Shown here in pieces: positions 7,760 to 45,563 of a stretch of DNA of 64,000 nt; the stretch's first letter is position 1; every line of letters begins with the position of its first letter. Position numbers and translations under genes: made by a program. The DNA comes from Spirochaetia bacterium (GTDB taxonomy: Bacteria; Spirochaetota; Spirochaetia; SZUA-6; Bin103), in assembly GCA_965199955.1 (NCBI GenBank), contig CBDATQ010000001.1:2006284-2070283 (forward strand), written 5' to 3'. The notes under the pieces are model-generated. The model saw only the letters and a program-made list of their open reading frames with translations. It was not told the DNA's origin and searched no databases.

Positions 7760-7826
7760 CGGTGGCCCACACCGAGCAGATGGAGGTGCCGAGCGTTCAC
7801 AGCGGGTCTCACGGGTTCAGGATAGG

Positions 7827-8852
7827 ATGGAGGCGATGGATGCGCATCCTGAGGTCGTCGAGGCCGCCGAACAGGGCGTCGCGTGGCTGAGAGAGCGGAT
7901 CGATTTCGATGGCGCGATCGGGGGGAGCGACGCACCGGGGCTCTACTTCAAGGTGCCGGCGGCGCTGGCGCTGAACGGCAGGCGGGGAGTCGCCGTCCGC
8001 GTGCTCGACTGGATCGCCGATCACCTGCTGGCGGCCGACGGCACGCTCAAGCTCGCAGCCGCGGTCGAACGGGGGCGTCCGAACACCTACGACCGCGGCT
8101 GGCTGGCATGGGGGGCGGCGCTCTGCGAGCGCTACGACCTGCAGCAGGCGCTGACGGACGACGTGGCCGCCTACCAGGACCGGCGCACGGGCGGGTTCTG
8201 GGACTCGGCTGTCGCCCGGTCGTCGCAGGCCGGATTGCAGGGCGCGATGACCGCCGGAATGGCCGGCCTGGCGCTGCTCGCGGCCGGCCGGATCGAGCCT
8301 GCGCGTCAGGCGGCACGGTTCCTGGATGAGCTCTGGGACGGGCAGGCGAGCCTGGACGACGGGTTCGATGCCAACCGGCAGGTGCCGGCTGACTGGGATG
8401 GGCGCGACGGACGCGCGCCGCCGTTCTACCGCGAGCGCACCTCCCGCCACTACGTCGACCTGCATGGCATGGCGCAGCGGCCCGCCCGCTTCGGGCCGGC
8501 GATCGCGTTGCTGGTGCGGTTGCACCGCCTCACGGGCGACCGCGTCCATCTGGCCTGCGCCCGCCGCTACGCCGATCTCTTTCTGCGCCGGGACGAACTC
8601 TATCTGTGCGTGGAGTGTCACAAATATCTCTGGGCGCTCTGCGAGCTGCAGCAGCTCATCCCCGAGAAGGATTACCGCGCCGCGGCAGGCAACTGCGCCC
8701 GATATCTCGTGGCGGCGCAACAGACGGATGGAAGCTGGCACCCGGAGGCATCGGCGACCGGCGGAGAGCCGAGTCTGGAGGAGGTGCTCAACGTGGTCGG
8801 CAACGTCCTGGCCGGCCTCGCCTACTACCGCATCCACCTGGACCACGTGTAG
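7827..8852 (+). CDS. Alpha/alpha-toroid repeat protein (prenyltransferase/terpene-cyclase-like repeats), function unknown
   Basis: ORF 7743..8852; ATG at 7827 (MEAMDAHPE) is the likely start. It has repeated aromatic/Gly-rich helical hairpin repeats and a QQTDGSW motif resembling the Q-x-x-D-G-G-W repeats. Confidence 0.45.
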   Translation: MEAMDAHPEVVEAAEQGVAWLRERIDFDGAIGGSDAPGLYFKVPAALALNGRRGVAVRVLDWIADHLLAADGTLKLAAAVERGRPNTYDRGWLAWGAALCERYDLQQALTDDVAAYQDRRTGGFWDSAVARSSQAGLQGAMTAGMAGLALLAAGRIEPARQAARFLDELWDGQASLDDGFDANRQVPADWDGRDGRAPPFYRERTSRHYVDLHGMAQRPARFGPAIALLVRLHRLTGDRVHLACARRYADLFLRRDELYLCVECHKYLWALCELQQLIPEKDYRAAAGNCARYLVAAQQTDGSWHPEASATGGEPSLEEVLNVVGNVLAGLAYYRIHLDHV

Positions 8853-9514: not shown

Positions 9515-10452
9515 TCAGCGATCGCCGGCGGCCCAAGCGTACGGGCCGGCGCCATGCGCGCGGATCACGGCGGCGATCCCGGCACGCAGATCGGCGGCGA
9601 GGGACCGGTGCGTTTCGATCAGGTTGGACATCTCGTCGGGATCGGCGTGCAGGTCGTACAGCTCCTCGCACGGATCGAAGCGGTGGCGGATGTACTTCCA
9701 GCGGCCGTCGCGGACCATGATCGTCCCCGCCAGCCGTTCCGGGGATTCATCCGGCTCGCGCTCCAGCGCGCGGATCTCGGAGAGCACCGGCGCTGACGGC
9801 GGCTCGGTTCCCGACAGCAGCGCCGGGGCGAGCGAGCGGCCGTGAAATGCGGCCCGGGCCGAGATCCCGGCCAGCTCCAGGAGTGTGGGCACCAAGTCCA
9901 CTCCGCCCACCGGACGCCGCAGCCGGGCGCCGGCGATGATCCGGCCCGCGCAGCAGCCACGGCACCCTGACCGACTGCTCGTACATCATCGACTTCGCGT
10001 ACGGGCCGTGCTCGCCCAGGCTCTTGCCGTGGTCGCTGATGAAGCAGACGAGGGTGTCCCCGGCCGCGCCGGCGTCCTCGAGCGCAGCGAGCAACCGGTC
10101 GAGCTGGCGGTCGACATGGGTGCAGAGCGCGTAGTAGTGCGCGGCGATCCGCCGCATGATCCGCACGCCGAACCGCGGTGCCGCGTGATGGCCCGAGCCG
10201 CGCAGGACGCCGGCTTTCCCGTCAGGTCAGCCCGGTCAGCCAGCTCGCGCGCGCGGGCGAGCAGACCGGCGAGGAGCAGCAGGCGGTTTCCAGGACCGTC
10301 CGCTGCGTGGCAAGACGTTCCAGCGTCGGGGTCTGCACCGCCGGGTCGCCCGCGAAGTCGGTGCTGGCAGCCCGCCACTGGTCGCATATGACCAGCAGGA
10401 TGTTCGGATGCCGGGGCATGCCGCAGAGTGGGGCTAGCGCACACCGCGTCAA
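9515..10452 (-). pseudogene. Sulfatase (formylglycine-dependent) split into three frames
   Basis: Minus ORF 10222..10452 reads NILLVICDQWR...CSPARASWLTG, the CxPxR FGly motif. Minus ORF 9747..10166 reads LVCFISDHGKSLGEHG. Minus ORF 9515..9910 carries the sulfatase C-terminus. At least two frameshifts separate them. Confidence 0.65.
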
Positions 10453-10499: not shown

Positions 10500-12050
10500 A
10501 TGAGCGACGCGGGCGAGGCGGGCGGCGAGTACCTGCTGGAGGCGCTCGACATCGTCAAGCGCTACGGCGACTTCACGGCCAACGACCGGGTCACCCTGAG
10601 GCTTCGCCCCGGCCAGATCCATGCCCTGCTCGGCGAGAACGGTGCCGGCAAGTCGACCCTGGTCAAGATCATGTACGGGGCGCGGCAGCCGACGGCCGGC
10701 ACGCTGCGCTGGCGCGGCCAACCGGTCTCGATCGCCAGTCCCGCCGCCGCGCGCCGGTTCGGCATCGCCATGGTCTTCCAGCACTTCTCCCTGTTCGAGG
10801 CGCTGACGGTGGTGGAGAACATCGCGCTGGCGCTGCCCGGCCGATTCGACCCCGGCGCCTTGGCCCGGCGCGTGACCGCCGTATCCGCGGAGTACGGGCT
10901 GCCGCTGGAACCGGGGGCGCTGGTCGCGGACCTGTCCGTCGGCGAGCGGCAGCGCATCGAGATCGTGCGCTGCCTGTTGCAGGAGCCGCGCCTGCTGATC
11001 ATGGACGAGCCGACCTCCGTGCTCACGCCGCAGGAGGCGGATCAGCTCTTCCTGACCCTGCGGCGCCTGGCCGACGACGGGTGCGCGGTGCTCTACATCT
11101 CCCATCGGCTGGAGGAGGTGCAGCGGCTCTGCCACGACGCCACGATCCTTCGCCGCGCCAAGGTCGTCGCGAACGTCGACCCGCAGGCCGAGACGGCGGC
11201 GTCCCTGGCGCGGCTGATGGTCGGCGAGGACGTCCACGCCGTGCGCGCGGAGGGACACGCGCACGACGGCGACGCCGCGCTCGCCGTCAACGGGCTGACG
11301 CTGGCGGCGGAGGGACCGTTCAGTGTTGCGCTGCGCGACATCGAGCTTACCGTCCGCGCCGGCGAAGTGACGGCGATAGCGGGAGTCGCGGGCAATGGCC
11401 AGTCCGAGCTGTTCGAGGCTCTGTCCGGGGAACGGCTGGCTCCGTCGGCCGGCGCGATCACGATCGCCGGACAACCATGCGGGACACGCGGCGCGACCGC
11501 GAGGCGCCGGCTGGGCGCCGCCTTCGTGCCGGAAGAACGGCTCGGCCACAGCGCCGTGCCGGGCATGGAGCTTTCCGAGAACGTCCTGCTCACACGTCAC
11601 GCGTCCGATCGCGGACTGGTGCGCGGCGGGTTCGTCGACCGGTCCGGAACCCGTTCGGTGACACAGCGGGTCACCGAGCGGTTCGACGTGCGCATCAGCG
11701 AGGCGAACCCGCAGGCAAGCGAGCTGTCCGGCGGGAACCTGCAGAAGTTCGTGATCGGCCGGGAGCTCGACCGCGAGCCCGCGGTCCTGGTGATCAATCA
11801 GCCCACCTGGGGCGTGGACGCGGGCGCGGCGGCGCTGATCCGGCAGGTGCTCGCCGACATGGCCAAGGACGGCGCGGCGGTGCTGGTCATCAGCCAGGAC
11901 CTGGACGAGATCTTCGAGATCGCCGACCGCATCGCGGTGATCTCCCGCGGCGAACTCTCGGCGACGTATCCGGCGAATCGCGTCGACCGCGAGCGAGTCG
12001 GCCTGCTCATGGCCGGGGTCGGGGAGACGTCCGCCGGCAAGGAAGGGTAG
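10500..12050 (+). CDS. ABC transporter ATP-binding protein with duplicated ABC domains (BMP/nucleoside-type, NupA/RnsA-like)
   Basis: Start MSDAGEAGG at 10500. It has two Walker A sites (GENGAGKST, GVAGNGQS), two LSGG signatures and a D-loop. Confidence 0.85.
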   Translation: MSDAGEAGGEYLLEALDIVKRYGDFTANDRVTLRLRPGQIHALLGENGAGKSTLVKIMYGARQPTAGTLRWRGQPVSIASPAAARRFGIAMVFQHFSLFEALTVVENIALALPGRFDPGALARRVTAVSAEYGLPLEPGALVADLSVGERQRIEIVRCLLQEPRLLIMDEPTSVLTPQEADQLFLTLRRLADDGCAVLYISHRLEEVQRLCHDATILRRAKVVANVDPQAETAASLARLMVGEDVHAVRAEGHAHDGDAALAVNGLTLAAEGPFSVALRDIELTVRAGEVTAIAGVAGNGQSELFEALSGERLAPSAGAITIAGQPCGTRGATARRRLGAAFVPEERLGHSAVPGMELSENVLLTRHASDRGLVRGGFVDRSGTRSVTQRVTERFDVRISEANPQASELSGGNLQKFVIGRELDREPAVLVINQPTWGVDAGAAALIRQVLADMAKDGAAVLVISQDLDEIFEIADRIAVISRGELSATYPANRVDRERVGLLMAGVGETSAGKEG

Positions 12051-27833: not shown

Positions 27834-28549
27834 CTACACGCCGAGCCACGTCGCCCTGACGTCGGGACTCCGGTCAAGCTCCGCCGCGGTGCCGTGCCAG
27901 CGGATGCGGCCCTTGCCGAGCACGTAGACGTGCTCGGCAAGCCCGATGGCGAACGGGTAGTTCTGCTCCACCAGCAGCATCGTCATGCCGGCCGCCCGCA
28001 GGTCGTGGACGATTCCGGCGATGCGCTCGACGACGATCGGCGCCAGCCCCTCGGTCGGCTCGTCCAGGATCAGCAGGCGCGGTGACAGGGTGATGGCGCG
28101 CGCGATGGCCAGCATCTGCTGCTCGCCGCCGCTCAGCTCGTTGCCGCGGTTGCGGCGCCGCTCGGCCAGCAGGGGGAACCGCTCGTAGAGGTCCTCCACC
28201 GGGACGCGGTGGCGGCCGGTGCCCCGACGCCGGTTCCGGTTTAGGTTCAGGTGCTCGTCCACCGTGAGCGAGGCGAAGATGCCGCGCTCCTCGGGTACAT
28301 AGCTGACTCCCCGCCGCGCGACGCGATGCGGCGGCAGGCGCTCGATCGCCTCGCCAGCGAACCGGATGGTGCCGCGCGCCGCGGCGGCGATGCCCATGAT
28401 CGACTTGAGCGCGGTCGACTTTCCTGCGCCGTTGCGTCCGAGCAGCGCGACGACACTGCCGCCCGCCACCTCCAGCGACACGTTCTGCAGGACGTGGCTT
28501 CGCCCGTAGTAGGTGTCCACCCCCTCCATGGACAGCAGCGGGTCCGCCA

Positions 28550-28550: not shown

Positions 28551-29295
<745 letters not shown>

Positions 29296-32457: not shown

Positions 32458-32614
32458 GGGGTGAATCCTAGTCGGGTCGGTTCAGGGATGTCCAGGATTC
32501 CGGGGACGGTACGGTAACGCAGGGGAACGCCCAGTCCGAGTTGGCCGACCGTCCGGGGACAGGCTATCCTGGAACCGCCATGCGCCTCCGCGAACGCCCC
32601 CGCGCCGGGGCCGC

Positions 32615-35600
32615 ATGATGCCCGGCGCCACGGAAGTCGTCGGGGTCGGCGGCTGTCTGACGACGCCGCTGACGGTGGCCGGCATCGACCATACGTCCGT
32701 GCGGGCGGCGGTCGCCCGCGCGTTCGCGGAGCAGCGGGCGTTTCCCTTCCTGCCGGACACGGAGTGGAGCGCCGCTGTCCCGGAGCAGCACGCGGAGCGG
32801 ACGGCTGCCGTCCGCGCTGAGGCGGTTGCGGCGGCGACGAAGAGCCCCACGACCGCCGACCGATTCAACCGTGACGCGCGGCTGATCGAACGGCTGGATG
32901 CCGCCGTCCGCCTCACGCATGAAGCGATCGCCGCGATCGGCGGCGAGGGACGCCAGACGCTCGAACGGCGGCGATTCGTGCTGATCAGGGAAGCGCCGGA
33001 AGCCACCTGCCTCTACGAGGAAGGGGAGACCGGCGTCGTCGCGCGAGTCGGGCAGGGACCGCTGGAGCTGCGTCAGCCTACGATCTACCTGGGCCTGCGC
33101 CTGTTCGACCTGCTGGCCGCGGAGCAGGTAGATCGCGGCGGCACGGTGCCGGAAGCGCTGCTCTCCATCCTGCGGCTGGAAGAGCGTGCGATCGAGACCG
33201 GCTACTCGCACGTGGAGCCGCTGGACGCGCCCAGGCGCGAGGCCCTGGAACGCCTGTTCGGCGTCCTGCGCCAGCCGATCGCGGGACTGACGCCGGCCGA
33301 GCCCGAGCCGGAGCGGCAGCGGCGGCCGATGCGCTTCTCGCAGGCGCTCAGGCAGGCGACGCTGCGCCAGTTGAACGCACGGCGGGCCGACGCGCCGCTG
33401 GATTTCGACCCCGCCATATGCGTGTCCGCCATGCGCCGCCTGGAGCGCACCGCACAGCGCGCCAAGGCGTACGGCGGCGATTCGGTGCGCCGCGAGGTGA
33501 TGCGGCTGCTGGTCGCCGCCTCCGGGCACGACCTGGACGAGGTGCGCAACCACGCCAACCTGCTGCTGGAGCGCATGCTCGCCCCCAAGGAATTCGCCGC
33601 TCCGCTTGCGCGGACGTTCCTGACCGCCATGCAGGGGACGGAGCACCACTTCAGCTTCGATCTCCCGCGCAGCCGCGGCCGGTACCGGCTCCGGATCTAC
33701 CGGGGCCGCGGCCAACGGCGCTATCCGAGCGAGGCGGACCTGGACTACGTGGATGTCGATCTGGCCCGGTCGTCGCCGGGATCACCGCACACCGCCACCT
33801 GGCGATTCGACGAGCTCGGGCACTACGACTTCTGCGTGGCGAGGGAATTCGACAGCGGCCGCCGGGAGTGGGTTCAGGACGCCGAGTGCAGCGGGCGCAT
33901 CAACGTGCTGCCCGACCTCCGCGGCGAGCTGGTGTTGCAGATCTTTCCCGACATCCACGGACACACCCGCGCCTACTGGGCTGACGTCGAGCATCCGGGA
34001 CTGGTGTACAACGAGCACGGGCAGGTGATCCGCCAGGGCACGTTCGCGGACATCGCCGCGCACCTCCCGGAGATCAAGCGCAAGTACGGGTTCACCGCCA
34101 TCTACGTGCTGGGCGCGCAGAAACGCGGCAGCAACCGCGAGGACTGGACCGGCCACGCAACCTCGCCTTCGCCGTTCGCGCCGGAGAGCCTGACCGAGAT
34201 GGAGCCGGCGCTCGGCGGGAACGACGGCCTGCGGACCCTGGTCGCCGCCGCCCACGAGCTTGAGATCAAGGTGCTGCTGGACGTGATCCCGCACCTCAAC
34301 CGAAGGGTGCACGACGACGTGCCGGATGAGGACGTCGTGCAGTGCTTCGACGACGACGGCACCCTGGTCGCGCGCTCCTCGACCGACGGCCGCTACGGGA
34401 GCTGGAACGACGGCGTGCTGCTCAACTACCGGCGCCTGTCGGTATGGGAGTGGCTGGTCGATTCGGTGCGCGCCCTGATCGACCGGTTCGACGTCGACGG
34501 GGTGCGCTGCGACATTTCGCACGCCCTGCCGATCATGATGAAGCGCAACAATGCCCCGGCGGTGCCGGCCGGCCCCCGTTCTGACGAGGAGCAGGTCGAG
34601 GGCACCATAGTGGTCAACGAACGGGTCGACGACCACTATGTCACCACCGGGTTCTTCGACTCGGCGTGCCGGGACCTGATCGCCAGCCCCCTGCACTACC
34701 TGCTGATGCGCGAGATGGAGCAGGCCGCGCATGCGGCCGGCAAGCCCTTCTACGTCCACCTTGCCGAGGCGTACTGGGGACGTGAGCAGTACCTCAGCCG
34801 CGTCGGCATCGTTTCGTACAACTCGGCGCTGTTCAAGATCTGCGAGCGCATCGCCCAGGGGACCTCCGCGGTCGGCGAGGTCTACCACCTGTACGACCAG
34901 CACTACCGCGGCGCACTGCCGCCCGGCACCGAGTTGATCGGATTGTTCGGCAACCATGACGAGCGCCGCCCGGTCAACACCTTCGGCCGCGACAACCTGC
35001 GGCCCGTGCTCACGCTTACGTCGTTTCTGAGCAACGTGGTGATGGACTTCGAGGGCAACGCCGAGGGCGAGGCGTGGAAGGTGTTTCCGGACAACGTCTA
35101 CGTCGACTGGAACCGGTTCGACAACGCCGCCGACCGCAGCGTCGAGCGCATCTTCCGCGACGTGTACGCCATCCACCGCCGCAACCCGGGCCGCGGGATG
35201 CTGGTGCCTACCGACCATCCCCAGGTGGCCGCGGTGATCAAGCCCGCCCCCGAGGGACTCTGGCTGGCCGTGTGCAGCTTCTCGGCGGACAGCGCCACGG
35301 TGAGCGTCGACATGCGCGCCGCCGCCTCCTCGCTGGATGGCTCGATCGATCCCGCCGGGCGCTACGTGGTGGCGGATCCCACCTACTCGCCGGTCACCCG
35401 CCGCTACGCCCACTACACGGGAGAGGAGTTGCGACACTCCACGCTGACCACCTCCGTGAGCTACCGGCAGCGGGTGAAGCTGCTGCGCATCGACCGGATC
35501 GCCGACGACGACCTGGGCGGCGGGACGGCCGAATCCGGGTATCCGCGTTTCCTGCGCGATTCGTTCGACCGCCTGCAGGACGCGCCGTCCCGCGAGCGGC

Positions 35601-37516
35601 TGGACCCCTCGTTCGCGTACCGGGAGATCACGCGCGCTGCGGCGACTCGTGGCGGTCTGGGACGGTTTCTGGACGAGAAGCTGCTGCCCCTCTACGAGGA
35701 CGCCGAGCACGACGCCGTCGTCCTCGGCCTGAAGCGGGTGCTGTTTCACGCCTACCGGGAAGGCGGCCTGGGCCGCGGCGGCGAGGGAGCCAGGCTGCCC
35801 GCCCCCGGGAAAGGCCGCACGCGGCGCTCCCGGCTGCTGGCACGGGTGCTGGACGGACTGCGCAGCCGCCCGGTGGTGTTCGTGTCGGCGGAGGCGGAGC
35901 CGTTCTCCAAGAGCGGCGGACTGGCCAACGTGACCTGCGAGCTGCCGCGCGAGCTGGCCCGCCTGGGGGAGCGGCTGTACGTGATCACGCCGCTGTACCG
36001 CGCCGGCGAGCCGCGCGCGGTGGAGAAGATGCAGGCGGCGATCGACCGCTACGGCATCACCTACAGCGGCACGAACGTGAGCTTCCAGCTCGGCGACGAG
36101 CGCTACGAGGTGGGCGTGCACTCGGGCGAGGTCGACGGCGTGACCTACTACCTGCTCGACCACCACGAGCTGTTCGACGGGCTGTACTGGGGCTATCGCT
36201 CCAACGAGCGCATCCGCCGTCGCCTGGGCCTGGCGCGGGCGGCGGCAGAGGTGATCGTCAGCTTCGACCTCGATCCGCTGGTGGTCGCCACCAACGACGC
36301 GGCTGCCGGCCTGCTCACCGGCATCGTCCGAGCCGATCCGCACTATGCAGAACCCTTTGCGCGCACCAGCTTCGTGCATGTCATCCACAACGGCGGCTGG
36401 CAGTACTTCGACTGCTATGGCCGCTATGAGGACGGCACCGATCTGTTCGGGCTGTTCAACCTCCCCGGACACCACGTATCGCAGTTCACGGATCCGCGTG
36501 ACGACGGCCTGTTCAACCTGATGGCCGCCGGCATCCGCTTCGCGGACCGGGTGTTCACCGTGAGCCCCTCCTACGCGCGGCAGATCGAGCAGAACTGCGA
36601 CGGGCTGGAGCCGTTGCTGGAGGACGTGATCGGCATCAACAACGGCATCGCCCGCGGGTTCCGGCGCGGCGTGCGGCAGCGCCTGTCGCGCTCCGGGCTG
36701 GAGGAGCACCAGTACCCGCGGCTGCGCGCGCGTATCGCCGAGGACCCGTTGCTGCGCGCCAAGCTCGAACGGCGGTTCCCGGAGCTGCTGGCCGACGACC
36801 CGGACGCCGTCCGCTTCCGCAGCCAGGCGCGGCGAGACGAGGTCACCCGCATGCGCACCAAGCTGCTGGCGCAGCTCGAGTACGGGCTCACGGTCGATCC
36901 GGACCAGGTGCTGTACGTGATGATCCATCGGGTCAGCGACCAGAAGGGGTTTCAGATCCTGCTGGAGGCTTCCGAGGGGATCTTCCGCAACCTCGGCGTG
37001 CAGGCGATCCTGGGAGGTCCCATCGCGCCCAACGACCACCGTGCCGAGGAACTCGCCGCCGGCATGCACGCCCTGATGGAGTTCTATCCGGGCGCGGTCG
37101 CCACGCGGATCGGCTACCAGGAGATCAGCCTGCCGCTGCTGGCCGCCGACGCGTTCCTGATGCCGTCCCAGTTCGAGCCCGGCGGCATCTCCCAGCTCGA
37201 GGCGATGAGCTGCGGCTGCCTGGTGGTCGCGCACGCCACCGGTGGCCTGCGCGACACGGTGACCCCGCTGCAGCTTCGGGGCTCGACCGTGAGCGGGTAT
37301 GGCGTGCTGTTCGGGGACTACCAGGCCGACGCGTTCCTCGACGCGATGGCGCGCTGCACGTGGTTCTTCCGTCACGCCACGGCCGCGCAGATCCGCCGCG
37401 CGCGCAACAACGCGCGGCGCAACATCGTGTACTGGGACGGCGCCGCCCGCCGCTACCTGGAAGAGCTGCACGCCCTGCAGGAGACGATCCCGGCAGCGAA
37501 TCTCCCGCCCCAATAA
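32615..37516 (+). CDS. Multidomain alpha-glucan enzyme: unknown N-terminal region, GH13 alpha-amylase-family catalytic domain and GT5 glycogen/starch-synthase domain in one 1633-aa polypeptide
   Basis: It is a single ORF. GH13 regions GFTAIYVLG, LDVIPHLN, GVRCDISHALP, AEAYW and FGNHDERR lie at about 34000-35450. GT5 motifs FSKSGGLANV and QFEPGGISQLEAMSCG lie at about 35865-37516. A stem-loop sits right after the TAA stop. Confidence 0.7.
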   Translation: MMPGATEVVGVGGCLTTPLTVAGIDHTSVRAAVARAFAEQRAFPFLPDTEWSAAVPEQHAERTAAVRAEAVAAATKSPTTADRFNRDARLIERLDAAVRLTHEAIAAIGGEGRQTLERRRFVLIREAPEATCLYEEGETGVVARVGQGPLELRQPTIYLGLRLFDLLAAEQVDRGGTVPEALLSILRLEERAIETGYSHVEPLDAPRREALERLFGVLRQPIAGLTPAEPEPERQRRPMRFSQALRQATLRQLNARRADAPLDFDPAICVSAMRRLERTAQRAKAYGGDSVRREVMRLLVAASGHDLDEVRNHANLLLERMLAPKEFAAPLARTFLTAMQGTEHHFSFDLPRSRGRYRLRIYRGRGQRRYPSEADLDYVDVDLARSSPGSPHTATWRFDELGHYDFCVAREFDSGRREWVQDAECSGRINVLPDLRGELVLQIFPDIHGHTRAYWADVEHPGLVYNEHGQVIRQGTFADIAAHLPEIKRKYGFTAIYVLGAQKRGSNREDWTGHATSPSPFAPESLTEMEPALGGNDGLRTLVAAAHELEIKVLLDVIPHLNRRVHDDVPDEDVVQCFDDDGTLVARSSTDGRYGSWNDGVLLNYRRLSVWEWLVDSVRALIDRFDVDGVRCDISHALPIMMKRNNAPAVPAGPRSDEEQVEGTIVVNERVDDHYVTTGFFDSACRDLIASPLHYLLMREMEQAAHAAGKPFYVHLAEAYWGREQYLSRVGIVSYNSALFKICERIAQGTSAVGEVYHLYDQHYRGALPPGTELIGLFGNHDERRPVNTFGRDNLRPVLTLTSFLSNVVMDFEGNAEGEAWKVFPDNVYVDWNRFDNAADRSVERIFRDVYAIHRRNPGRGMLVPTDHPQVAAVIKPAPEGLWLAVCSFSADSATVSVDMRAAASSLDGSIDPAGRYVVADPTYSPVTRRYAHYTGEELRHSTLTTSVSYRQRVKLLRIDRIADDDLGGGTAESGYPRFLRDSFDRLQDAPSRERLDPSFAYREITRAAATRGGLGRFLDEKLLPLYEDAEHDAVVLGLKRVLFHAYREGGLGRGGEGARLPAPGKGRTRRSRLLARVLDGLRSRPVVFVSAEAEPFSKSGGLANVTCELPRELARLGERLYVITPLYRAGEPRAVEKMQAAIDRYGITYSGTNVSFQLGDERYEVGVHSGEVDGVTYYLLDHHELFDGLYWGYRSNERIRRRLGLARAAAEVIVSFDLDPLVVATNDAAAGLLTGIVRADPHYAEPFARTSFVHVIHNGGWQYFDCYGRYEDGTDLFGLFNLPGHHVSQFTDPRDDGLFNLMAAGIRFADRVFTVSPSYARQIEQNCDGLEPLLEDVIGINNGIARGFRRGVRQRLSRSGLEEHQYPRLRARIAEDPLLRAKLERRFPELLADDPDAVRFRSQARRDEVTRMRTKLLAQLEYGLTVDPDQVLYVMIHRVSDQKGFQILLEASEGIFRNLGVQAILGGPIAPNDHRAEELAAGMHALMEFYPGAVATRIGYQEISLPLLAADAFLMPSQFEPGGISQLEAMSCGCLVVAHATGGLRDTVTPLQLRGSTVSGYGVLFGDYQADAFLDAMARCTWFFRHATAAQIRRARNNARRNIVYWDGAARRYLEELHALQETIPAANLPPQ

Positions 37517-37540: not shown

Positions 37541-37560
37541 TTGGCCCACCCCGCCTTTGG

Positions 37561-37608
37561 CAAGGATCTGGCGTACCGGCCGCGCGCGGCCGGTACGCCA
37601 GATCCTTG
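37561..37608. repeat. Perfect 48-bp palindrome CAAGGATCTGGCGTACCGGCCGCG|CGCGGCCGGTACGCCAGATCCTTG
   Basis: The two 24-nt halves are exact reverse complements with no spacer. It lies in the 129-bp intergenic region between the convergent fusion gene and glgX, and is followed by CTCCTTTATAT on the plus strand. Confidence 0.6.
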
Positions 37609-37645
37609 CAGGTACTCAGCTCCTTTATATGATTATGTGCGCAAT

Positions 37646-39628
37646 CTACTCGCCGGACGCGGCCGCGAGGAGCACCAGGGAGCGGGGGGCCGCGTGGTAG
37701 ACCTCCTGGGGAGTGATCGGCAGCGCCTGGCCGAGATCGCAGATGTCGTGCGGCGACGGCAGCGCCGTGTCGATCGCCCGACGCCACGCGCCGCCGCAGC
37801 ACGCGGCGGGGACGGCGAACTCGCACGGCTCCTCGGCGGCGTTCAGGATCAGGCAGAGGTCCAAGGCCTCGTCGTGCAGGCACACGGCAAGCCGGGGCTC
37901 CCCGCTGCTCCAGTCGGGATACGCACCGCGCGGGTCCAGCCAGCGTATCTCCGAGCCATCGTCTTCATAGAACGTGTCGCGGCGCAGCGCAGGGTGGCGG
38001 GCCCGCAGCGCGATCACCTCGCGGCAGAAGCGGGCGAGCTCGGCGTTGCTCACGTGCAGGGTCCAGTCGTGCCAGGACACCTCGCTGTCCTGGCAATAGG
38101 CGTTGTTGTTGCCGCCCTGCGTGTGCGCCATCTCGTCGCCGCCCAGCAGCATCGGCGTGCCAAGCGACAGGAACAGGGTCGCCATCAGGTTCTTGCTCTG
38201 GCGCAGCCGCGTCGCGTGTATCTCGGGGTCGTCGGCGGGGCCCTCCACACCGTAGTTGGCGCTGAGGTTGTGGTCGCTGCCGTCGAGGTTGTCCTCGCCG
38301 TTCGCGGCGTTGTGCTTGGCGGCATAGCTGACCAGGTCCCGGAGGGTGAACCCGTCGTGCGATGTGACGAAGTTGATGCTGTGGACGGGCCGGCGGCCGT
38401 CGTCCCCGTACAGGTCGGCGCTTCCCGTCAGCCGCGTGGCGAGCGCCGCGGCAGAGCCGTCACCACGCCAGAAGCGGCGTACGTCGTCGCGGAAGCGGTC
38501 GTTCAGCTCCGCCCAGCGCTCGCCGGGAAACTGACCGACCTGGTAGGCCCCGGCGGCGTCCCACGCCTCGGCGATGATCTTGGTATCGCGCAGCACCGGG
38601 TCCTCGCCGATCCGCTCCAGGATCGGCGTGTTGGCGCTGAGGTTGCCGAACCGGTCGCGTCCGAGTACGGAGGCCAGGTCGAACCGGAAGCCGTCGACGT
38701 GCATCTCCACGGCCCAGTAGTGGAGGCAGTCGATGATCAGCTCGCGGACCACGGGATGGTTGCAGTTGAGGGTGTTATGGCAGCCGGTGAAGTCCAGGTA
38801 GCGGCTCGGATCGTCGGGGTCGAGCAGGTAATAGACGCTGTTGTCCAGTCCCCGGTAGGAGAAGGTGGGACCGTCCGCGCCCCGCTCCGGCGAGTGGTTG
38901 AACACCATGTCCAGGATCACCTCGATGCCGGCGGCGTGCAGGGCCTTGACCATCTCCTTGAACTCGCTCACCTGGCTGCCCGGCTCCGTTCCCGCGGCGT
39001 AGCGGCGCTTGGGGGCGAACAGGCCGATCGGGTTGTAGGCCCAGTAGTTGACCAGCGGCTCACCCGAAGCCGATCCGGGGGCGTGCTCGTCCGACTCGGT
39101 CACCGGCAGCAGCTCGACCGCGGTCACGCCCAGCTCGTTCAGATACGGGATGCGCTCGGCCAGGCCGCGGAACGTGCCGGGGTGCGCCACATCCGAAGAG
39201 GGGTGGACGGTGAATCCGCGCACGTGGGTTTCGTAGATCACCGTCCGCGCGGGCGGATGGCGTGGCGCACGGTCGTCGCCCCAGTCGAAGGCATCGTCCA
39301 CCACCAGGCAGCGGGGGCCGTCGGCGGGCAGGTCCGTCGCGCGAAGGCGAGGCGGCAGGGCGCAGGTGAACGCCTTGGCGTACGGATCGAACAGCGGGGC
39401 GTGCGGGTCGAAGAGGTGACCGGCCGCGGGCGCAAGGGGACCTTCCACCCGGTACAGGTAGGCGTGGCCGGGGCCCACACCGTCCACGACCAGGTGCCAG
39501 ATGTCCCCGGTGCGGTGCAGTGGAATCCGTGCGCTCGGTGCGGCGCTCCCGGCGTCGTCGAACAGCAGGAGGGTCACGGCCGTGGCATGCCGGCTGAACA
39601 GCGCGAACTGCGTGGCGCCGTCGAGCAC
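37646..39628 (-). CDS. glgX: Glycogen debranching enzyme (isoamylase-type, GH13_11 with N-terminal CBM48)
   Basis: 660-aa ORF. YETHVRGFT, DMVFNHS, GFRFDLASVL, EAWD and FVTSHDGFTL match GlgX-type debranching enzymes. Confidence 0.85.
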   Translation of the reverse strand: MLDGATQFALFSRHATAVTLLLFDDAGSAAPSARIPLHRTGDIWHLVVDGVGPGHAYLYRVEGPLAPAAGHLFDPHAPLFDPYAKAFTCALPPRLRATDLPADGPRCLVVDDAFDWGDDRAPRHPPARTVIYETHVRGFTVHPSSDVAHPGTFRGLAERIPYLNELGVTAVELLPVTESDEHAPGSASGEPLVNYWAYNPIGLFAPKRRYAAGTEPGSQVSEFKEMVKALHAAGIEVILDMVFNHSPERGADGPTFSYRGLDNSVYYLLDPDDPSRYLDFTGCHNTLNCNHPVVRELIIDCLHYWAVEMHVDGFRFDLASVLGRDRFGNLSANTPILERIGEDPVLRDTKIIAEAWDAAGAYQVGQFPGERWAELNDRFRDDVRRFWRGDGSAAALATRLTGSADLYGDDGRRPVHSINFVTSHDGFTLRDLVSYAAKHNAANGEDNLDGSDHNLSANYGVEGPADDPEIHATRLRQSKNLMATLFLSLGTPMLLGGDEMAHTQGGNNNAYCQDSEVSWHDWTLHVSNAELARFCREVIALRARHPALRRDTFYEDDGSEIRWLDPRGAYPDWSSGEPRLAVCLHDEALDLCLILNAAEEPCEFAVPAACCGGAWRRAIDTALPSPHDICDLGQALPITPQEVYHAAPRSLVLLAAASGE

Positions 39629-39813
39629 GGGTCGCGCCCAGCGGCTCCGGCCGGCCGCGGCGGGTGTTGGACGGCCCGGGAGAGCGGTGCACCGTGGTCA
39701 ATGAGTACCACCGGCAGGCCAGATGCGCCAGACGGTGGACGGCCGAGCGCGTTCCTGGCACTAATACGCACTCTGGATACGGTCTCGGAGCCGTTCCGCT
39801 GCGAGGGTCACGA
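39629..39813. promoter_or_regulatory. Divergent intergenic region between glgX and glgP (presumed promoters)
   Basis: 185 bp lie between the divergent start codons. No specific operator was recognised. Confidence 0.25.
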
Positions 39814-42378
39814 ATGACAAACCGACTCACCTTTACCGTCAAGCCCCACCTCCCGGAGCGCCTGGCGCCCCTGGCCGATCTGGCCCATGACTTCTGGATT
39901 ACCTGGCACTTCGACGCCATCCGCCTGTTCATGCGGTTCGGCGCCGACGCATGGGAGCAGGCCCAGCAGAGCCCTCTGCGGCTGCTCAGCGAGTTGCCGC
40001 AGGAGCGGCTCCACGAGATGGAGCGGGACAAGGCATTCCTCGCCCACATGGACCAGGTCATCGCCGACTACCACGATTACCTGCAGGCCGATCCGTGGTA
40101 CTCTGGACCTCGCGACGCCGTGGTCGCCTACTTCTCCATGGAGTTCGGCCTGGACGCCACCCTGCCGATCTATTCCGGCGGCCTGGGGGTGCTGGCCGGC
40201 GACCACTTGAAGAGCTGCTCCGACCTGGGGTTGCCGGTCGTGGGCGTGGGGCTGCTCTACCGCACCGGTTACTTCCGCCAGCGCGTCACCATGGACGGCC
40301 ACCAGCTCGAGAGCTTTCCGGCCAACGACTTCTACAACATGCCTCTCATGCTGTGCACTTCTGCAGACGGCGAGCCGGTGACGATTACCGTGGATCTGGG
40401 CGGAGAACGGGCGCATGCGTGCATCTGGCGCGTCCGGGTGGGACGCGTGCCGCTCTATCTGCTCGACACCGACATCGACGCCAACGACCCGTCGACGCGC
40501 GAGATCACCGGTCAGCTCTACGTGTCGGACCGCCGCATGCGCCTGCGCCAGGAACTGCTGCTGGGCATCGGCGGCATTCGCGCGCTGCGCGCCCTGGAGA
40601 TCCCGGTCGCGGTGACCCACATGAACGAGGGGCACTCGGCGTTCCTGGCCCTGGAGCGGGTCCGTGAGCTGATGCACGAGCACGGCATGAGCTACTTCGA
40701 GGCACTGCAGGCGGTGTGGAGCACCACGGTGTTCACCACCCACACGCCGGTGCCGGCCGGCAACGAGACGTTCGACCCGCACCTGGTGCTGGACCAGGCC
40801 AGAGCGCTGCGCTCCGCCCTGGGGCTGGACGAGCACGAGTTCCTGTCGCTGGGCCGCATCGGGCACGACGGCGACGCGCACGGCCAGTTCGGGCTCACGC
40901 CGCTCGCCCTGCGCCTGGCCGCGCACTGCAACGGGGTCAGCAAGCTGCACGGCCAGGTGTCGCGCCGCATGTGGCGCAGCCTGTGGCCGGGCGTGCCGGC
41001 GGACGAAGTGCCGATCCGCCACATCACCAACGGCGTCCACCTGCGGAGCTGGATCTCGCATGACGTCCAGGAGCTGCTGGTGCGCTACCTGGGGCCGGCG
41101 GTGGCCAAGCACGCGCCCGAGGTGGCGGTGTGGCGGCAGGTGGACAACATCGCCGACGAGGAGCTGTGGCGGACGCACGAGCGGCGACGCGAACGGGTGA
41201 TCTGGTTCGCCCGCCGGCGCATCGTGGCGCAGATGCGGCGCGAAGGGGCCGCGGAGGCCGATCTGCGGGCGGCCGAGGTGGCGCTGCGCCCGGACGCCCT
41301 GACGATCGGATTCGCGCGCCGGATTGCCGGTTACAAGCGCCCGGGCCTGCTCTTCCGTCAGCCGGAGCGCCTGGTGCGGCTGCTCAGCAGCCGCGAGCAG
41401 CCGGTGCAGATCATCTTCGCCGGCAAGTCGCACCCCAACGATCACCAGGGCAAGGAGATGATCCGGCGCATCGTCCAGTTCGCGACCGAGCACGACCTGC
41501 GCAGCCGGATGGTGTTCCTGGACGACTACGACATCAACGTGGCGCGCTACCTGGTCGCGGGCTGCGACGTGTGGCTCAACATCCCGCGCCGGCCGCACGA
41601 GGCCAGCGGCACCAGCGGCATGAAGGCGTCGGTCAACGGATCGCTGATGGTGTCCACCCTGGACGGTTGGTGGGACGAGGCGTACAGCCCGGACATCGGC
41701 TGGTCCGTGGGCTCAGGCGAGACCTACCAGGACGAGAACATCCAGGACGAGCTGGAGGCCGACGCCGTGTTCGCGGAGCTGGAGCACATGGTCATCCCGA
41801 TGTTCTACGACCGCAGCATCGACGGCCTGCCGCGCGCGTGGATCGCCAAGATGCGGCATTCGATGACCGTGATCGGCGAGCACTTCAGCGCGCAGCGCAT
41901 GGTCGCCGAGTATCACGGCAACCTCTACGAACCGGCGCTCGCGCACGCCCGCCGGCTGCACGACTCGGGGTACCGGGACGCCGTGGAGCTCGCCGGCCAC
42001 CTGCAGCGGCTGCACCACCACTGGCCGGGGATCGCGGTCGAGCAACTCGACTCCGACAGCTCTGCGATGCTGGAGGTGGGCGACTCATTGGACGTCACCG
42101 CGCGGATCCGGCTGGGCGGACTGGAGCCGTCCGACGTGCAGGTGGCGCTCTATCATGGCGCGTTGCCCGGCAGCATCGACCTTCAGCCGGGCGACGACGA
42201 GATCGTCGACGGGCAGAGCACGCCCATGGAGCTGATCGAACGGCACGGGGAGTCGGCGACCTACCGCGCGAGCGCGATGTGCCGGAAGACGGGGAGGGTG
42301 GCCGCGACGGTGCGCGTGATGCCCGACCATCCCTTCCTTCCCCATCCGTTCGTGCCGGGGCTGTTCCTCCAGGGATGA
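39814..42378 (+). CDS. glgP: Alpha-glucan phosphorylase (GT35, long bacterial GlgP type with a C-terminal DUF3417-like extension)
   Basis: ATG at 39814 (MTNRLTFTVKPHLPERL). It has AYFSMEFGLD, the pyridoxal-phosphate region EASGTSGMKASVNG, and a C-terminal extension. Confidence 0.85.
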   Translation: MTNRLTFTVKPHLPERLAPLADLAHDFWITWHFDAIRLFMRFGADAWEQAQQSPLRLLSELPQERLHEMERDKAFLAHMDQVIADYHDYLQADPWYSGPRDAVVAYFSMEFGLDATLPIYSGGLGVLAGDHLKSCSDLGLPVVGVGLLYRTGYFRQRVTMDGHQLESFPANDFYNMPLMLCTSADGEPVTITVDLGGERAHACIWRVRVGRVPLYLLDTDIDANDPSTREITGQLYVSDRRMRLRQELLLGIGGIRALRALEIPVAVTHMNEGHSAFLALERVRELMHEHGMSYFEALQAVWSTTVFTTHTPVPAGNETFDPHLVLDQARALRSALGLDEHEFLSLGRIGHDGDAHGQFGLTPLALRLAAHCNGVSKLHGQVSRRMWRSLWPGVPADEVPIRHITNGVHLRSWISHDVQELLVRYLGPAVAKHAPEVAVWRQVDNIADEELWRTHERRRERVIWFARRRIVAQMRREGAAEADLRAAEVALRPDALTIGFARRIAGYKRPGLLFRQPERLVRLLSSREQPVQIIFAGKSHPNDHQGKEMIRRIVQFATEHDLRSRMVFLDDYDINVARYLVAGCDVWLNIPRRPHEASGTSGMKASVNGSLMVSTLDGWWDEAYSPDIGWSVGSGETYQDENIQDELEADAVFAELEHMVIPMFYDRSIDGLPRAWIAKMRHSMTVIGEHFSAQRMVAEYHGNLYEPALAHARRLHDSGYRDAVELAGHLQRLHHHWPGIAVEQLDSDSSAMLEVGDSLDVTARIRLGGLEPSDVQVALYHGALPGSIDLQPGDDEIVDGQSTPMELIERHGESATYRASAMCRKTGRVAATVRVMPDHPFLPHPFVPGLFLQG

Positions 42379-42442
42379 CACGGCCCGTGGAGACGTCGGC
42401 GATGCCGATGGGCTATGGCCGGTCGGTGGCGCGGATGGAGCC

Positions 42443-43222
42443 ATGAGCCCCGGCACGCGCGGCATCATCATCGGAGCCGGCCGCGGCAGTCGCTTGATGC
42501 CTGCCACGGAGAACACGCCCAAGTGCTTCGCCGAGGTGGGCGGGAAGCGCATACTCGACTGGGTGCTGGCGGCCTTCCAGGACAACGGCATCAACGATGT
42601 CTGCTTCATCGGTGGCTACAGGATCGACGTCGTCCGCGCAGCGTATCCCCGGCTCACGTTCCGAACCAACGCCAACTGGGAGCGCAACAACATCCTTGCC
42701 TCCCTGATGCACGCCGAGGATCTGATGGACGGGCCATTCATCTGCTGCTACTCCGACATCCTGTTTACCCCGGAGGTCATTCGGCGGGTGATGAACGACT
42801 GCCGCGACATCGCTCTGGTCGTGGACACGGAGTGGTCCGATCGCTACCGATACCGCACTGACCACCCGGCGGACGACGCCGAGAAGGTGATCGCGGCGGA
42901 TGGACGGATCACGCGCATCCATCGTGACATTGGGGAGTCTGCCGCGTACGGCGAGTTCACAGGCGTCTCGAAGTTCTCCCGCTCGGGAGCCACGCTCTTG
43001 AGAGAGCACTATCATCGCTGCCGGCGCCGTTACGCCGGTGCCAGCTTCCGAGAGGCGCCGTCATTCGAGAAGGCCTACCTCATCCATCTGTACCAGGAGA
43101 TGCTGGAACAGGGCGTGCCAATCGCGCACGTCGACACGCCCGGAGAGTACGTGGAGATCGACACCCAGCAGGACTTCGAGCTGGCGCGCGCGCACTGGGA
43201 CGGTGGTGGCGCGCGTGGGTGA
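42443..43222 (+). CDS. LicC-like NTP-transferase (sugar-phosphate/phosphocholine nucleotidyltransferase family)
   Basis: GIIIGAGRGSRLMPATENTPKCFAEVGGKRIL is the G-x-G-x-R-L...TENTPK signature. The 259-aa product has no C-terminal LbH domain. GC is about 62%, lower than the neighbours. Confidence 0.55.
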   Translation: MSPGTRGIIIGAGRGSRLMPATENTPKCFAEVGGKRILDWVLAAFQDNGINDVCFIGGYRIDVVRAAYPRLTFRTNANWERNNILASLMHAEDLMDGPFICCYSDILFTPEVIRRVMNDCRDIALVVDTEWSDRYRYRTDHPADDAEKVIAADGRITRIHRDIGESAAYGEFTGVSKFSRSGATLLREHYHRCRRRYAGASFREAPSFEKAYLIHLYQEMLEQGVPIAHVDTPGEYVEIDTQQDFELARAHWDGGGARG

Positions 43223-44341
43223 CCATCGCGAGCGCTTCCTGTTTCCCACTTCGGTGGTAGGTTCCGTGCCGCGACCACAATTCGTTCGCGACCTCATCGG
43301 TGCCTCCGGGTCCCTTGCCGCGGAGGACTACGGCGCGCGGATGGACGCCGCCGTCCGCTACGTCGTCGCCATGCAGGAGCACGCCGGTCTCGACGTCGTC
43401 ACCGACGGTGAGTGGCGGCGCCGGTCCTACATCGGCGTGATTGCGGAGCTGGCCCACGGCTTCGAGCTTTCGGCCAACCCTGCCGACGGTCGCCCATGGA
43501 CGGTGGTGGTAGACAGGCTGGCGCCCAAAGCGACGGGGTTCATCGCCCGTGAGGTTGCGTTTCTCAAGAGCGTGACGTCGCGTGCAGTGAAAGCCACGTT
43601 GCCGGCACCGGCGCTGCTCGGGGAACGCATGTGGGATGCGCAGCGCTCGTCGCAGGCGTATCCCACGCGAGAGCAGTTCGTGCGCGACTGCGTGCCGATC
43701 CTGCGACGCGAGGTGGAACTGGTGTGTGACGCCGGGGCGGATGTGATTCAGATCGACGACCCGCACCTGTGCCTGTTCGTGGATCCCGACGTCCGGGCCG
43801 GCTACGAAGATCCCGACGCTGCGGCCGACTTTTCGGTGGACATGGTGAACCAGGTGTTGAGCGGTCATCACGCCATGGCTGCAGACGTGACGACCGCCGT
43901 GCACCTCTGTCGGCGCGCCGGTGCCCGTGCGCGCGGTGAGCGCAGCCATCGCGGCGACTACGCGCCTACGTTGCCCAGCTCAATCGGCTGCAAGCGCAGC
44001 ACCTGACGTTGGAGTTCACCACTCCGGAGGCCGGCGACATGCAGGTGTTGCGCGATCTGCGGGAGGAACTGCAGATCGGTCTCGGCTGCGTCAGCGTAAC
44101 GCCCGGGCAGATCGATACCGCTGCTCAGATCGTGCAGCGGGTGGAAGCGGCGCTGCAATTCGTCGCGCCGGAGCGGATCACCCTCAACCCGGACTGCGGC
44201 TTTGCACCTGGCTCGGGCGCCGACGTCTCCATGGACGAGGTATACGCCAAGCTGACGGCAGAAGTCGCGGCCGCGCGTATGCTGCGGGAGACGGCACGCG
44301 CCGATCCCGGTTACTTCTGTTGCTGGAAGAAGCGCCGATAG
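43215..44341 (+). pseudogene. MetE C-terminal-domain-like (cobalamin-independent methionine synthase family) protein with one frameshift
   Basis: GTG at 43215 overlaps the upstream stop. FPTSVVGSVPRP...IQIDDPHL...HLCRRAG is followed by a frame switch at about 43950 to AYVAQLNRLQAQHLTLEFTTPEAGD...NPDCGFAPG (ORF 44009..44341). Confidence 0.5.
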
Positions 44342-44344
44342 ACT

Positions 44345-44439
44345 TCTTCCTCGGAGAGCGTTTCGGAGTGGAACCAGGTCGAGCAGATCCACTCCGACAG
44401 CGCTGCCACGCTCGAGGTGGGCGCTCGCTGGACGGACGG
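44345..44439 (+). other. Approximately 95-bp relic homologous to an internal part of glgP (start of the C-terminal extension)
   Basis: It translates SESVSEWNQVEQIHSDSAATLEVGARWTDGQ, compared with GlgP HHWPGIAVEQLDSDSSAMLEVGDSLDVTARI. 38 of 45 nt are identical between 44379-44423 and 42039-42083. Confidence 0.45.
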
Positions 44440-45360
44440 TCAGGCGCCGTTCCTGACCACGTAGGCGGTCGAAAGCAGTTCGAGCGCATCATCGAACACG
44501 GTCTCGGTGTCGGCAAACCGCACCGCGGAAATGGCCGCGCACTCGGTGGCCGCGCCTTTCGACAGGAACGATCCGGAGACCGGCGAGACGTCGGAGTAGT
44601 CGCGGCCGACGGCCAGCTTGATGTAGTCGCTGGCGGGCGGAAACAGGACGCCACGGGTGGGGTCGGCCGCGACCCAGCCGGACCGCGGATGGAGCACCTC
44701 CAGCCAGGCGTGGGTCTCTCCCACTTGTCCCGTGAGCAGCCCGCTGACGTAGCGGCAGGGGATGCTCAGCGCGCGCAGCATGCCCAGGGCCAGGTGGGTC
44801 TTGTCCTGGCACACTCCTTCCCTGGTTGCCAGCACCTGCTCGGCAGTGGTCGTGACCCCGGTGGCGCCGCGCCGGTATCCGATCTCGCGGTGCACCCACT
44901 CGACGGTCGCACGTACCGCCGCCAGCAGGGAGCCGGCGTCGCCAGCGACCTCCTGCGACACCGCCGCGACGCCTTCGGGATCGATCAGCGGCGACCTGAA
45001 CGCGAAGTCGAAGCCGTCCGGCAGATCGGTGACCTCGGCCAAGGCGGAGTCCTCGGGCGCCGGCGCCGCATCAGCCAGCCGGATCCGTCCCGCCGTGGCG
45101 ACCACGAGGCGGTCGTGCGGCGCGAAGATGCGGACGCGCTGCACGCGGTTGCCGAAGCGGTCCCGGTACTCCACGGAGCGGCCTTCGGGCCGGGTCCACA
45201 TCTGCTGGCCCATCGGCTCCTGGGACGCGTCGGCAAGGGGAAAGATGCGGAGCTGATTGTCGTTGTGCAGGACCCGGTCGGAGTAACCGTAGTGCGCTGC
45301 GTAGATATACGACGCCGTGACCGTCTGTGCCGCTAGCTGAGCACCCATGTGGGCTTGCAC
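44440..45360 (-). CDS. Transglutaminase-like (bacterial TGase N-domain + papain-like Cys-His-Asp core) protein
   Basis: CQDKTHLALGMLRALSIP (Cys), GETHAWLEV (His) and AADPTRG (Asp), with an N-terminal Bact_transglu_N-like region. Confidence 0.75.
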   Translation of the reverse strand: MQAHMGAQLAAQTVTASYIYAAHYGYSDRVLHNDNQLRIFPLADASQEPMGQQMWTRPEGRSVEYRDRFGNRVQRVRIFAPHDRLVVATAGRIRLADAAPAPEDSALAEVTDLPDGFDFAFRSPLIDPEGVAAVSQEVAGDAGSLLAAVRATVEWVHREIGYRRGATGVTTTAEQVLATREGVCQDKTHLALGMLRALSIPCRYVSGLLTGQVGETHAWLEVLHPRSGWVAADPTRGVLFPPASDYIKLAVGRDYSDVSPVSGSFLSKGAATECAAISAVRFADTETVFDDALELLSTAYVVRNGA

Positions 45361-45563
45361 AGTCCCCCCGAAGAGTTGTTGGTGATGCGGCTGCCTTCCA
45401 GCGCCACCCGGGGCAGGCCGCCGGGGAACACCGTGACCTCGCCGTCCGCGCCCTGAATGGCGAATACCCGCAGGTCCACGTGGCGTGGCTCCAGCATGCC
45501 GTTCCGCTCATTCAAGACGACGTGTTGGGAGAAGTCCAGCGCGTCTTGCGCGATGAACATCAA
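45333..45563 (-). pseudogene. C-terminal approximately 55 codons of a circularly permuted ATP-grasp (type 2) gene; the rest is absent
   Basis: VDLRVFAIQGADGEVTVFPGGLPRVALEGSRITNNSSGG..KPTWVL is the characteristic C-terminus of CP ATP-grasp proteins. Upstream sequence is occupied by the vapC 3' end. Confidence 0.45.

Follow-up and report, generated by a model that had tools for sequence, protein, structure and literature searches.

The stretch of DNA analysed here, referred to as the window, comprises 64,000 nucleotides (nt) of contig CBDATQ010000001.1 from a metagenome-assembled genome (MAG) labelled Spirochaetia bacterium. All coordinates are positions within it, and L-numbered loci are related MAG or metagenome contigs. 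In the window, the alpha-glucan phosphorylase gene glgP is followed by a two-gene cassette, consisting of a nucleotidyltransferase (NT) gene and a short MetE-like gene with a frameshift. Then come the last codons of a gene that we call Y, a 58-nt direct copy of an internal segment of glgP, and a transglutaminase-like gene (TGase). An earlier note on this DNA had drawn attention to the short copy, hereafter the relic or patch, and had read it either as the trace of a second phosphorylase gene or as a by-product of the arrival of the cassette. Comparison with related haplotypes indicates that the relic is probably a glgP-derived patch at an illegitimate-recombination junction, left by the loss of most of Y.

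Layout of the locus

The features of the locus are collected in Table 1. The genes are tightly spaced: the GTG start of the MetE-like gene overlaps the stop codon of NT, and the stop codon of TGase lies 6 nt from the patch.

Table 1. Features of the glgP locus in the window
Feature	Position	Strand	Basis
Amylase/glycogen-synthase fusion gene	32465-37516	+	Domain matches
glgX	between fusion gene and glgP	-	
glgP, alpha-glucan phosphorylase, 854 aa	39814-42378	+	Pfam DUF3417 + Phosphorylase + GlgP_C; NCBIfam TIGR02094, 805 bits
Source segment in the GlgP C-terminal domain, encodes VEQLDSDSSAMLEVGDSLD	42036-42094	+	Repeat alignment
NT, 259 aa, intact, PntC/LicC/inositol-1-phosphate cytidylyltransferase (IPCT)-like cytidylyltransferase type	42443-43222	+	NTP_transf_3
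Short MetE-like gene, Meth_synt_2, frameshifted	43215-44341 (43215-44006, remainder in another frame to 44341)	+	Two Pfam pieces
21-nt spacer, MetE-like core to Y stop codon	44290-44310	.	Shared with L178 and L183
Remnant of Y (short Alpha-E-like protein), last ~22 codons, WFHSETLSEEEVYRRFFQQQK, and stop codon	44311-44378	-	Alignment to Y of L014, L011, L178 and L183
Relic (patch), 58-nt direct copy of glgP 42036-42094, one base missing	44377-44434	+	Alignment to glgP alleles
TGase, Bact_transglu_N + Transglut_core, convergent with the cassette	44440-45360	-	Domain matches
PIN gene, then FG-GAP gene	beyond TGase		Domain matches

Extent and significance of the direct repeat

Without gaps, nucleotides 42029-42082 and 44370-44423 were identical at 44 of 54 positions (81%), the longest direct repeat between 39 and 46 kb. 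The 38 matches in 45 positions described earlier for 44379-44423 were reproduced, with the partner segment at 42038-42082 and not, as had been given, one nucleotide further on at 42039-42083. The two peptides quoted at the time had been translated correctly and share the GlgP register. A single 1-nt gap extended the match to 44377-44434 against 42036-42094, with about 49 of 59 positions identical to the window's own glgP, and the glgP-like similarity at the relic formed a single high-scoring segment pair of 47-59 nt.

A high content of guanine plus cytosine (GC) and codon bias raise background matching, and the repeat might on these grounds be a chance match in GC-rich, coding-like sequence. 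We compared all 54-nt segments of the 64 kb with each other on both strands, which covered about 4x10^9 position pairs. The repeat, at 44/54, was the sole direct-strand pair above 39/54, and the tail of the direct-strand score histogram dropped about threefold per step. Chance pairs on the inverted strand also peaked at 39/54; scores of 40-41 there came from paralogous ATP-binding cassette (ABC) ATPases and a score of 50 from a palindrome. The ABC pairs (10962-11015 with 28053-28106, and 11753-11806 with 28773-28826) are transporter ATPase motifs in paralogues on opposite strands, and served only for calibrating the chance tail. Because it is the unique top direct pair and the next reaches 39/54, the repeat exceeds chance. 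The relic also matches glgP from two further genomes at 55 and 54 of 59 positions, and a chance match has next to no probability of being the explanation.

Gene orders in related haplotypes

A scan of species-representative genomes with GlgP placed the window lineage in a high-GC group of 'Spirochaetia bacterium' MAGs. The lineage carries the label Spirochaetia and yet has a GC content of about 68-69%. GlgP of L014 and L011 was 96% and 94% identical to the window protein, and that of L012/L013 72-74%; at the nucleotide level, L178 and L183 were 97.3% and 88.7% identical to the window.

The gene order downstream of glgP differed between these loci. L011 has no cassette, and its glgP is followed by a segment of about 5 kb (X) and by Y fused to TGase. 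In L014 the order is glgP, NT, intact MetE-like gene, X, Y and TGase, with no duplication of glgP. L183 carries glgP, NT, an intact MetE-like gene, a complete Y and the last 260 nt of TGase, with no glgP copy; it is colinear with the window over 37659-44378, the 21-nt spacer and the Y tail included, and its complete Y continues from there. L178 likewise has glgP, NT and an intact MetE-like gene, followed by 156 nt of Y, 96 nt of glgP and unrelated sequence. In the window, the frameshifted MetE-like gene is followed by 68 nt of Y, 58 nt of glgP and TGase.

Segment X holds a B12-binding radical S-adenosylmethionine (radical-SAM) gene, a YhcG nuclease gene and unknown open reading frames (ORFs). 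The radical-SAM gene of L014 (12517-14226, with DUF4070) starts within the last codons of the MetE-like gene, and its counterpart in L011 (10658-12373) directly follows glgP; the gene is missing from the window, L178 and L183. The gene Y is small and Alpha-E-like; it is no pseudogene, and its family, with members of 167-178 aa, is large and widespread. These proteins, such as Y of L014 (17620-18135, minus strand), are roughly half as long as the Pfam Alpha-E model, and in this lineage Y lies downstream of the TGase gene or is fused to it.

The 21-nt spacer at 44290-44310 has no template elsewhere in the window or in the loci. It belongs to the old arrangement and is no recent scar, being common to L178 and the 11%-diverged L183.

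The glgP patch at the deletion junction in Y

Aligned with L014 and L183, the window can be followed in Y as far as 44378 and in the TGase flank from 44433 onwards. Exactly between these breakpoints sits the glgP copy, and compared with L183 the 467 nt that make up the body of Y and the Y-TGase spacer are gone. The junction was identical in all six independently assembled Logan contigs that reach it. That the relic derives from glgP, as the earlier note had held, was borne out by its identity to the alleles of L178 (55/59, 93%) and L014 (54/59, 91.5%), to which it is nearer than to any non-glgP sequence. It differs from the L178/L014 allele by four substitutions and one deletion. The source segment in the window carries five window-specific substitutions, which leaves the window copy further from the relic than the L178 and L014 alleles. 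Compared with about one expected, five substitutions gave P = 0.0035, or about 0.2 after correction for the scan, and we make no claim from this excess. Glycogen phosphorylase-like (glgP-like) sequence was searched for in the Y regions of L014, L011 and L183, and none was found.

The copy keeps the peptide reading register of GlgP, as would the last trace of a second, paralogous phosphorylase that had been deleted or replaced. The similarity is, however, limited to 58-59 nt, and its sharp edges are the breakpoints seen in comparison with the relatives. At 91-93% identity to orthologous glgP alleles, the relic is far too alike for an old paralogue. No relative examined has a phosphorylase at the site: cassette-bearing L014 and L183 and cassette-less L011 all have a complete Alpha-E-like gene there. 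This origin is extremely improbable.

The other proposal, insertion of the cassette with partial duplication of glgP, was not supported. In L014 and L183 the cassette occupies this site without the duplication, so that the relic, which marks a later loss of 467 nt at Y, is not the mark of cassette arrival. In partial agreement with the proposal, a 96-nt duplication of the glgP end does occur at the far end of the cassette segment in L178. The patch appears to have formed after the cassette was already present. This event would not be very recent, because the changes in the relic are of the same order as the synonymous divergence of glgP in the window lineage. Insertion of a mobile element with target-site duplication was considered as well and rejected: the repeats measure 58 nt with 83% identity, the DNA between them encodes neither transposase nor integrase, and the right-hand repeat is missing in cassette-bearing L014 and L183. 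A direct repeat that flanks a low-GC cassette need not mark the insertion of that cassette.

A precursor with the order glgP, NT, MetE-like gene, Y and TGase, which is still present in L183, would account for the patch. In the window lineage, the 467 nt of Y body and spacer would have been removed and the gap bridged by a 58-nt stretch copied, without change of orientation, from the glgP gene 2.3 kb upstream. Between the breakpoints seen in the alignments, the copying may have proceeded through switching of templates while a break was repaired or DNA replicated, or through end joining with templated filler. The patch would then have drifted.

L178 bears on a different course of events. There, the final 96 nt of glgP recur as a second copy, which adjoins the 156-nt Y remnant through 7 nt of microhomology (GTGCCGG), has about nine differences from the first copy and ends in a TAG stop as in L011. 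The sequence beyond this copy was compared with the downstream flank that glgP has in relatives; it includes instead the 3' end of a dCache gene, of which a piece is also present beside the Y copies of L181 and L182. The relic of the window could be what trimming has left of a longer, partial duplication of glgP at its 3' region. Such a duplication would have been made when a cassette-bearing segment integrated from another strain, one end anchored by glgP homology and the other joined illegitimately inside the recipient glgP (homology-facilitated illegitimate recombination, HFIR), with a later deletion removing the rest. L178 has this architecture, including the divergent second copy with its L011-type stop codon. 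Haplotype states that are incongruent with divergence point to exchange between strains, and the relic carries an L178/L014-type allele and not the window's own. The trimmed duplication calls, however, for one more deletion, with an endpoint exactly at the TGase flank. The glgP breakpoint of the window (42036) lies upstream of that of L178 (42279), so that the two do not go back to one shared duplication, and L183 (D-type haplotype) provides a one-step precursor. Finally, it is doubtful whether the sequence after the L178 copy, with its gene fragment seen beside Y elsewhere, is the flank native to a glgP without cassette. We hold the trimmed duplication to be unlikely, if the most serious competitor of a templated patch.

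The glgP 3' region appears to have been used twice, independently, as a partner in illegitimate joining at this locus. L180-L182 vary further around Y and TGase: between them they have a circularly permuted ATP-grasp gene in intact form, genes for restriction-modification and for an IS630-type (DDE_3) transposase, and Y in duplicate. Fragments of TGase, 56 and 80 nt long, and one of the dCache gene, 154 nt long, also lie in L181 and L182 (variants at 6646-8122, 9929-10007 and 11221-11605 in L181 and at 7814-8620 in L182). The locus shows recurrent short ectopic gene fragments and is a hotspot of illegitimate recombination. Because it is such a patchwork, illegitimate recombination serves as the general explanation, and the same patchwork keeps the trimmed duplication alive as a rival.

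Several points weigh against a templated patch at the Y deletion. The microhomologies at the patch junctions are only 2 nt each (GG at 44377-78 and CG at 44433-34) and are weak evidence for any given joining mechanism. With these haplotypes, a one-step templated insertion is indistinguishable from two steps, that is, a longer duplication that was later trimmed. The gene order does not agree with divergence: the cassette is present in L183 (88.7% identity) and missing from L011 (90.5%). Because gene-order states do not follow sequence divergence, recombination between strains is suggested to have reshuffled the locus, and the polarity of some steps is uncertain; three-taxon site patterns gave no root for the window, L178 and L014. 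All relatives are MAGs or metagenome contigs, L178 being one 4-kb scaffold.

A 9-bp inverted repeat, CGGAGTGGA (44364-72) and TCCACTCCG (44388-96), spans the junction between the Y remnant and the patch, and its stem is completed by one of the four relic-specific substitutions. Such a hairpin might indicate that the copy has been kept as a terminator or a regulatory RNA between the convergent genes. The folding energy of the intergenic region nevertheless did not differ from that of shuffled sequences on either strand (z = -0.53 and -0.13), the region had no Rfam match, and the element is missing from all relatives, which makes a retained function very unlikely.

The nucleotidyltransferase and the MetE-like protein

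The earlier description of the intervening genes as a LicC-type nucleotidyltransferase and a frameshifted MetE-like gene agrees with profile searches, which returned NTP_transf_3 for the former and two pieces of Meth_synt_2 for the latter. LicC (1JYK) was the best PDB sequence match of NT (E=3.5e-10), over its N-terminal 92 residues (6-97), where GAGRGSRL of NT aligns with AAGLGTRL of LicC and the GxGxRL nucleotide-binding motif is present. In the AlphaFold model (predicted local distance difference test, pLDDT, 89.6), the top Foldseek match was PntC (6PD2, template modelling (TM) score 0.76), followed by inositol-1-phosphate cytidylyltransferases, MurU and LicC (TM 0.71-0.72, 1JYK/1JYL). We rejected an assignment to LicC proper, since the sequence alignment covers only these 92 residues and PntC, IPCT and MurU match the structure equally well or better. 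The lic-operon genes licA, licB and licD were found neither in the window nor in the contexts of the homologues, and no NCBIfam model reached its cutoff for NT. More than 3000 homologues were retrieved, the best listed being 63-76% identical; among these best listed, the ones named by source include Planctomycetes, Verrucomicrobia and Omnitrophica. The family alignment had a mean column identity of 75%. From its motif and modelled fold, NT is predicted to belong to the cytidylyltransferase superfamily as a PntC/LicC-like member.

The MetE-like gene is intact in L014, L178 and L183, where it encodes 373-378 aa, and broken only in the window haplotype. Compared with L014, a 1-nt deletion at 43968/43969 (GCGCCCATCGTC vs GCGCCTA-CGTT) leads to a premature stop at 44004-44006 and falls between the H-x-C pair of zinc ligands and the other two, E and C. 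The two window pieces scored 55.8 and 46.1 bits against Meth_synt_2 (PF01717) and the L014 orthologue 100 bits, with a gathering cutoff of 21. The exact NT protein was present on at least 22 metagenome contigs, and all ten Logan contigs that were retrieved, each assembled independently, show the same split MetE-like gene. Loss of constraint on this gene appears to be recent, because the changes in the window lineage comprise eight synonymous and one nonsynonymous. Homology to the L014 gene ends at 44289; the altered C-terminal tail, which reads into Y antisense, also occurs in the intact genes of L178 and L183 and lies outside the conserved core.

In MetE, zinc is bound by H641, C643, E665 and C726 and homocysteine by S433, E484 and D599 (E. 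coli numbering) (PMC7857596). Motif alignment mapped these residues to H230, C232, E267, C328, S17, E66 and D181 of the L014 orthologue, all of them 100% conserved among 54 of 54 family members. Two assignments were tried and rejected. Full-length MetE (TIGR01371) has a folate-binding domain at its N-terminus and about 750 aa; the protein has 373-378 aa and scored 80 bits, the cutoff being 930. As for MesD/MesX, the protein scored 73 bits against the MesD structure 3RPD, and the adjoining gene is NT in 63 of 67 loci, not DUF1852. Price et al. (2021) used 390 bits to ACIAD3523 as the MesD criterion (PMC7857596). The family is also only distantly related to 1YPX.

Distribution of the cassette and proposed pathway

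NT is followed by the MetE-like gene in all four contexts with gene calls, and the two are adjacent in 63 of 67 metagenome loci and within 600 nt in two more. Directly upstream, 29 of the 43 loci with sufficient room have a gene for a major facilitator superfamily transporter of the organophosphate-antiporter (OPA) family, of the GlpT/PgtP/UhpC type. It was the only neighbour family to recur in more than 12 loci (24 of the 41 loci of at least 5 kb), and the window has no OPA-type transporter gene. The three-gene module of transporter, NT and MetE-like gene is kept across phyla (loci L091-L177; for example L093 697-4045 and L094 4704-7851).

These contexts speak against the suggestion that NT supplies an activated sugar or phospho-alcohol to the neighbouring glycogen enzymes. 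In this lineage NT does adjoin glgP, glgX and the glycogen-synthase fusion gene. In other organisms, however, the surroundings of NT change except for the MetE-like gene and the OPA transporter gene, and glycogen genes are absent from all four contexts for which genes were called. The cassette is missing from L011, where these glycogen genes are present, and the nearest structures to NT are phospho-alcohol and phosphonate cytidylyltransferases and not GlgC or GalU. A role in glycogen metabolism is therefore highly doubtful.

The GC content of the cassette was 65.8%, compared with 68.9% for the window, which places it at the 7th percentile among 1.9-kb segments; the earlier note was right that it is lower, but the figure of about 62% was too low. 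Third-position GC of its genes was 0.78-0.82, against about 0.90 in neighbouring genes. The cassette may have entered the window lineage horizontally, because its codon-position GC is lower than that of its neighbours and it is missing from L011 and from the glgP loci of L012/L013.

A pathway can be proposed for the module. The transporter would import an organophosphate, NT would activate it with cytidine monophosphate (CMP), and the MetE-like enzyme would alkylate (probably methylate) homocysteine, or a compound closely resembling it, at the zinc-bound thiolate. We consider the chances of this general logic to be about even; what weighs against it is that the biochemistry of the cassette is read from family membership, conserved residues and gene neighbourhood only. 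A more specific version is that NT, the MetE-like protein and the OPA antiporter constitute an undescribed folate- and B12-independent thiol-alkylating pathway, possibly a fifth kind of 'core' methionine synthase. A CMP-activated methylated organophosphate, such as phosphocholine or an N-methylated aminoethylphosphonate, would then be the methyl donor to zinc-bound homocysteine. This version is speculative and quite unlikely to be right in full. A limited literature search found no description of the pairing of NT with the MetE-like protein, nor of the module that includes the transporter. In the window genome the pathway is presumably no longer functional, because of the 1-nt deletion in the MetE-like gene.

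Neighbouring genes

The fusion gene upstream of glgX encodes about 1660-1680 aa with an alpha-amylase-family domain and a complete glycogen synthase (Glyco_transf_5 + Glycos_transf_1), and the same fusion was found in L183. Between it and the convergent glgX lies a perfect palindrome with a 24-bp stem (GCAAGGATCTGGCGTACCGGCCGC and GCGGCCGGTACGCCAGATCCTTGC, 37560-37609), which looks like a bidirectional terminator; related sequence was found in L014 and L011. Upstream of TGase, the window retains no more than 75 aa of a circularly permuted ATP-grasp gene (45333-45563, minus strand). In L180 this gene is intact with 450 aa (3701-5053), and because of this difference we consider the ATP-grasp/transglutaminase/Alpha-E operon to be decaying in the window haplotype.

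Comparison with known systems

The scar itself is an ordinary rearrangement of a known kind. Templated 'filler' insertions at deletion junctions arise by template switching of the microhomology-mediated break-induced replication (MMBIR) or fork stalling and template switching (FoSTeS) type, or by end joining with copied filler. Like these, the window patch is a short copy in direct orientation, taken from a site a few kb away and lying exactly between deletion breakpoints; it differs in that the evidence for it is a naturally occurring polymorphism of a spirochaete not in culture. With five haplotypes bracketing the event, the scar shows cleanly, in a natural setting, how a short fragment of a nearby gene can be inserted where a deletion has occurred. 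HFIR, reportedly described by de Vries and Wackernagel in 2002, is the other process to which the locus can be likened. One homologous anchor (glgP) and one 7-nt microhomology join at the far end of a non-homologous segment are found in L178, and haplotypes at this locus appear to move between strains. Unlike simple HFIR, the window patch requires two junctions.

We regard the cassette as a more useful lead than the scar, since the pairing is conserved at about 65-75% identity across phyla. NT shares its fold and the GxGxRL motif with the phosphonate-specific PntC (6PD1/6PD2) and with the CTP:phosphocholine enzyme LicC (1JYK). It differs from both in that the structural alignments are only 18-20% identical, that ppm and lic genes are absent from its vicinity and that it has the MetE-like gene as constant partner.

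The core folate-independent methionine synthases comprise MesA-MesD, and MesD/MesX form a two-gene system (Price et al. 2021, PMC7857596). If the cassette acts as proposed, a new methyl-transfer route to homocysteine would bear on the open question of the methyl donors of the core methionine synthases. In contrast to MesD/MesX, the partner of the MetE-like protein is a cytidylyltransferase and not DUF1852, and the activity of the MetE-like protein is predicted only. As in the core methionine synthases, the MetE-like protein has no folate-binding domain and keeps all zinc- and homocysteine-binding residues, and as in MesD/MesX it is obligately paired with a second gene, which may supply the methyl donor.

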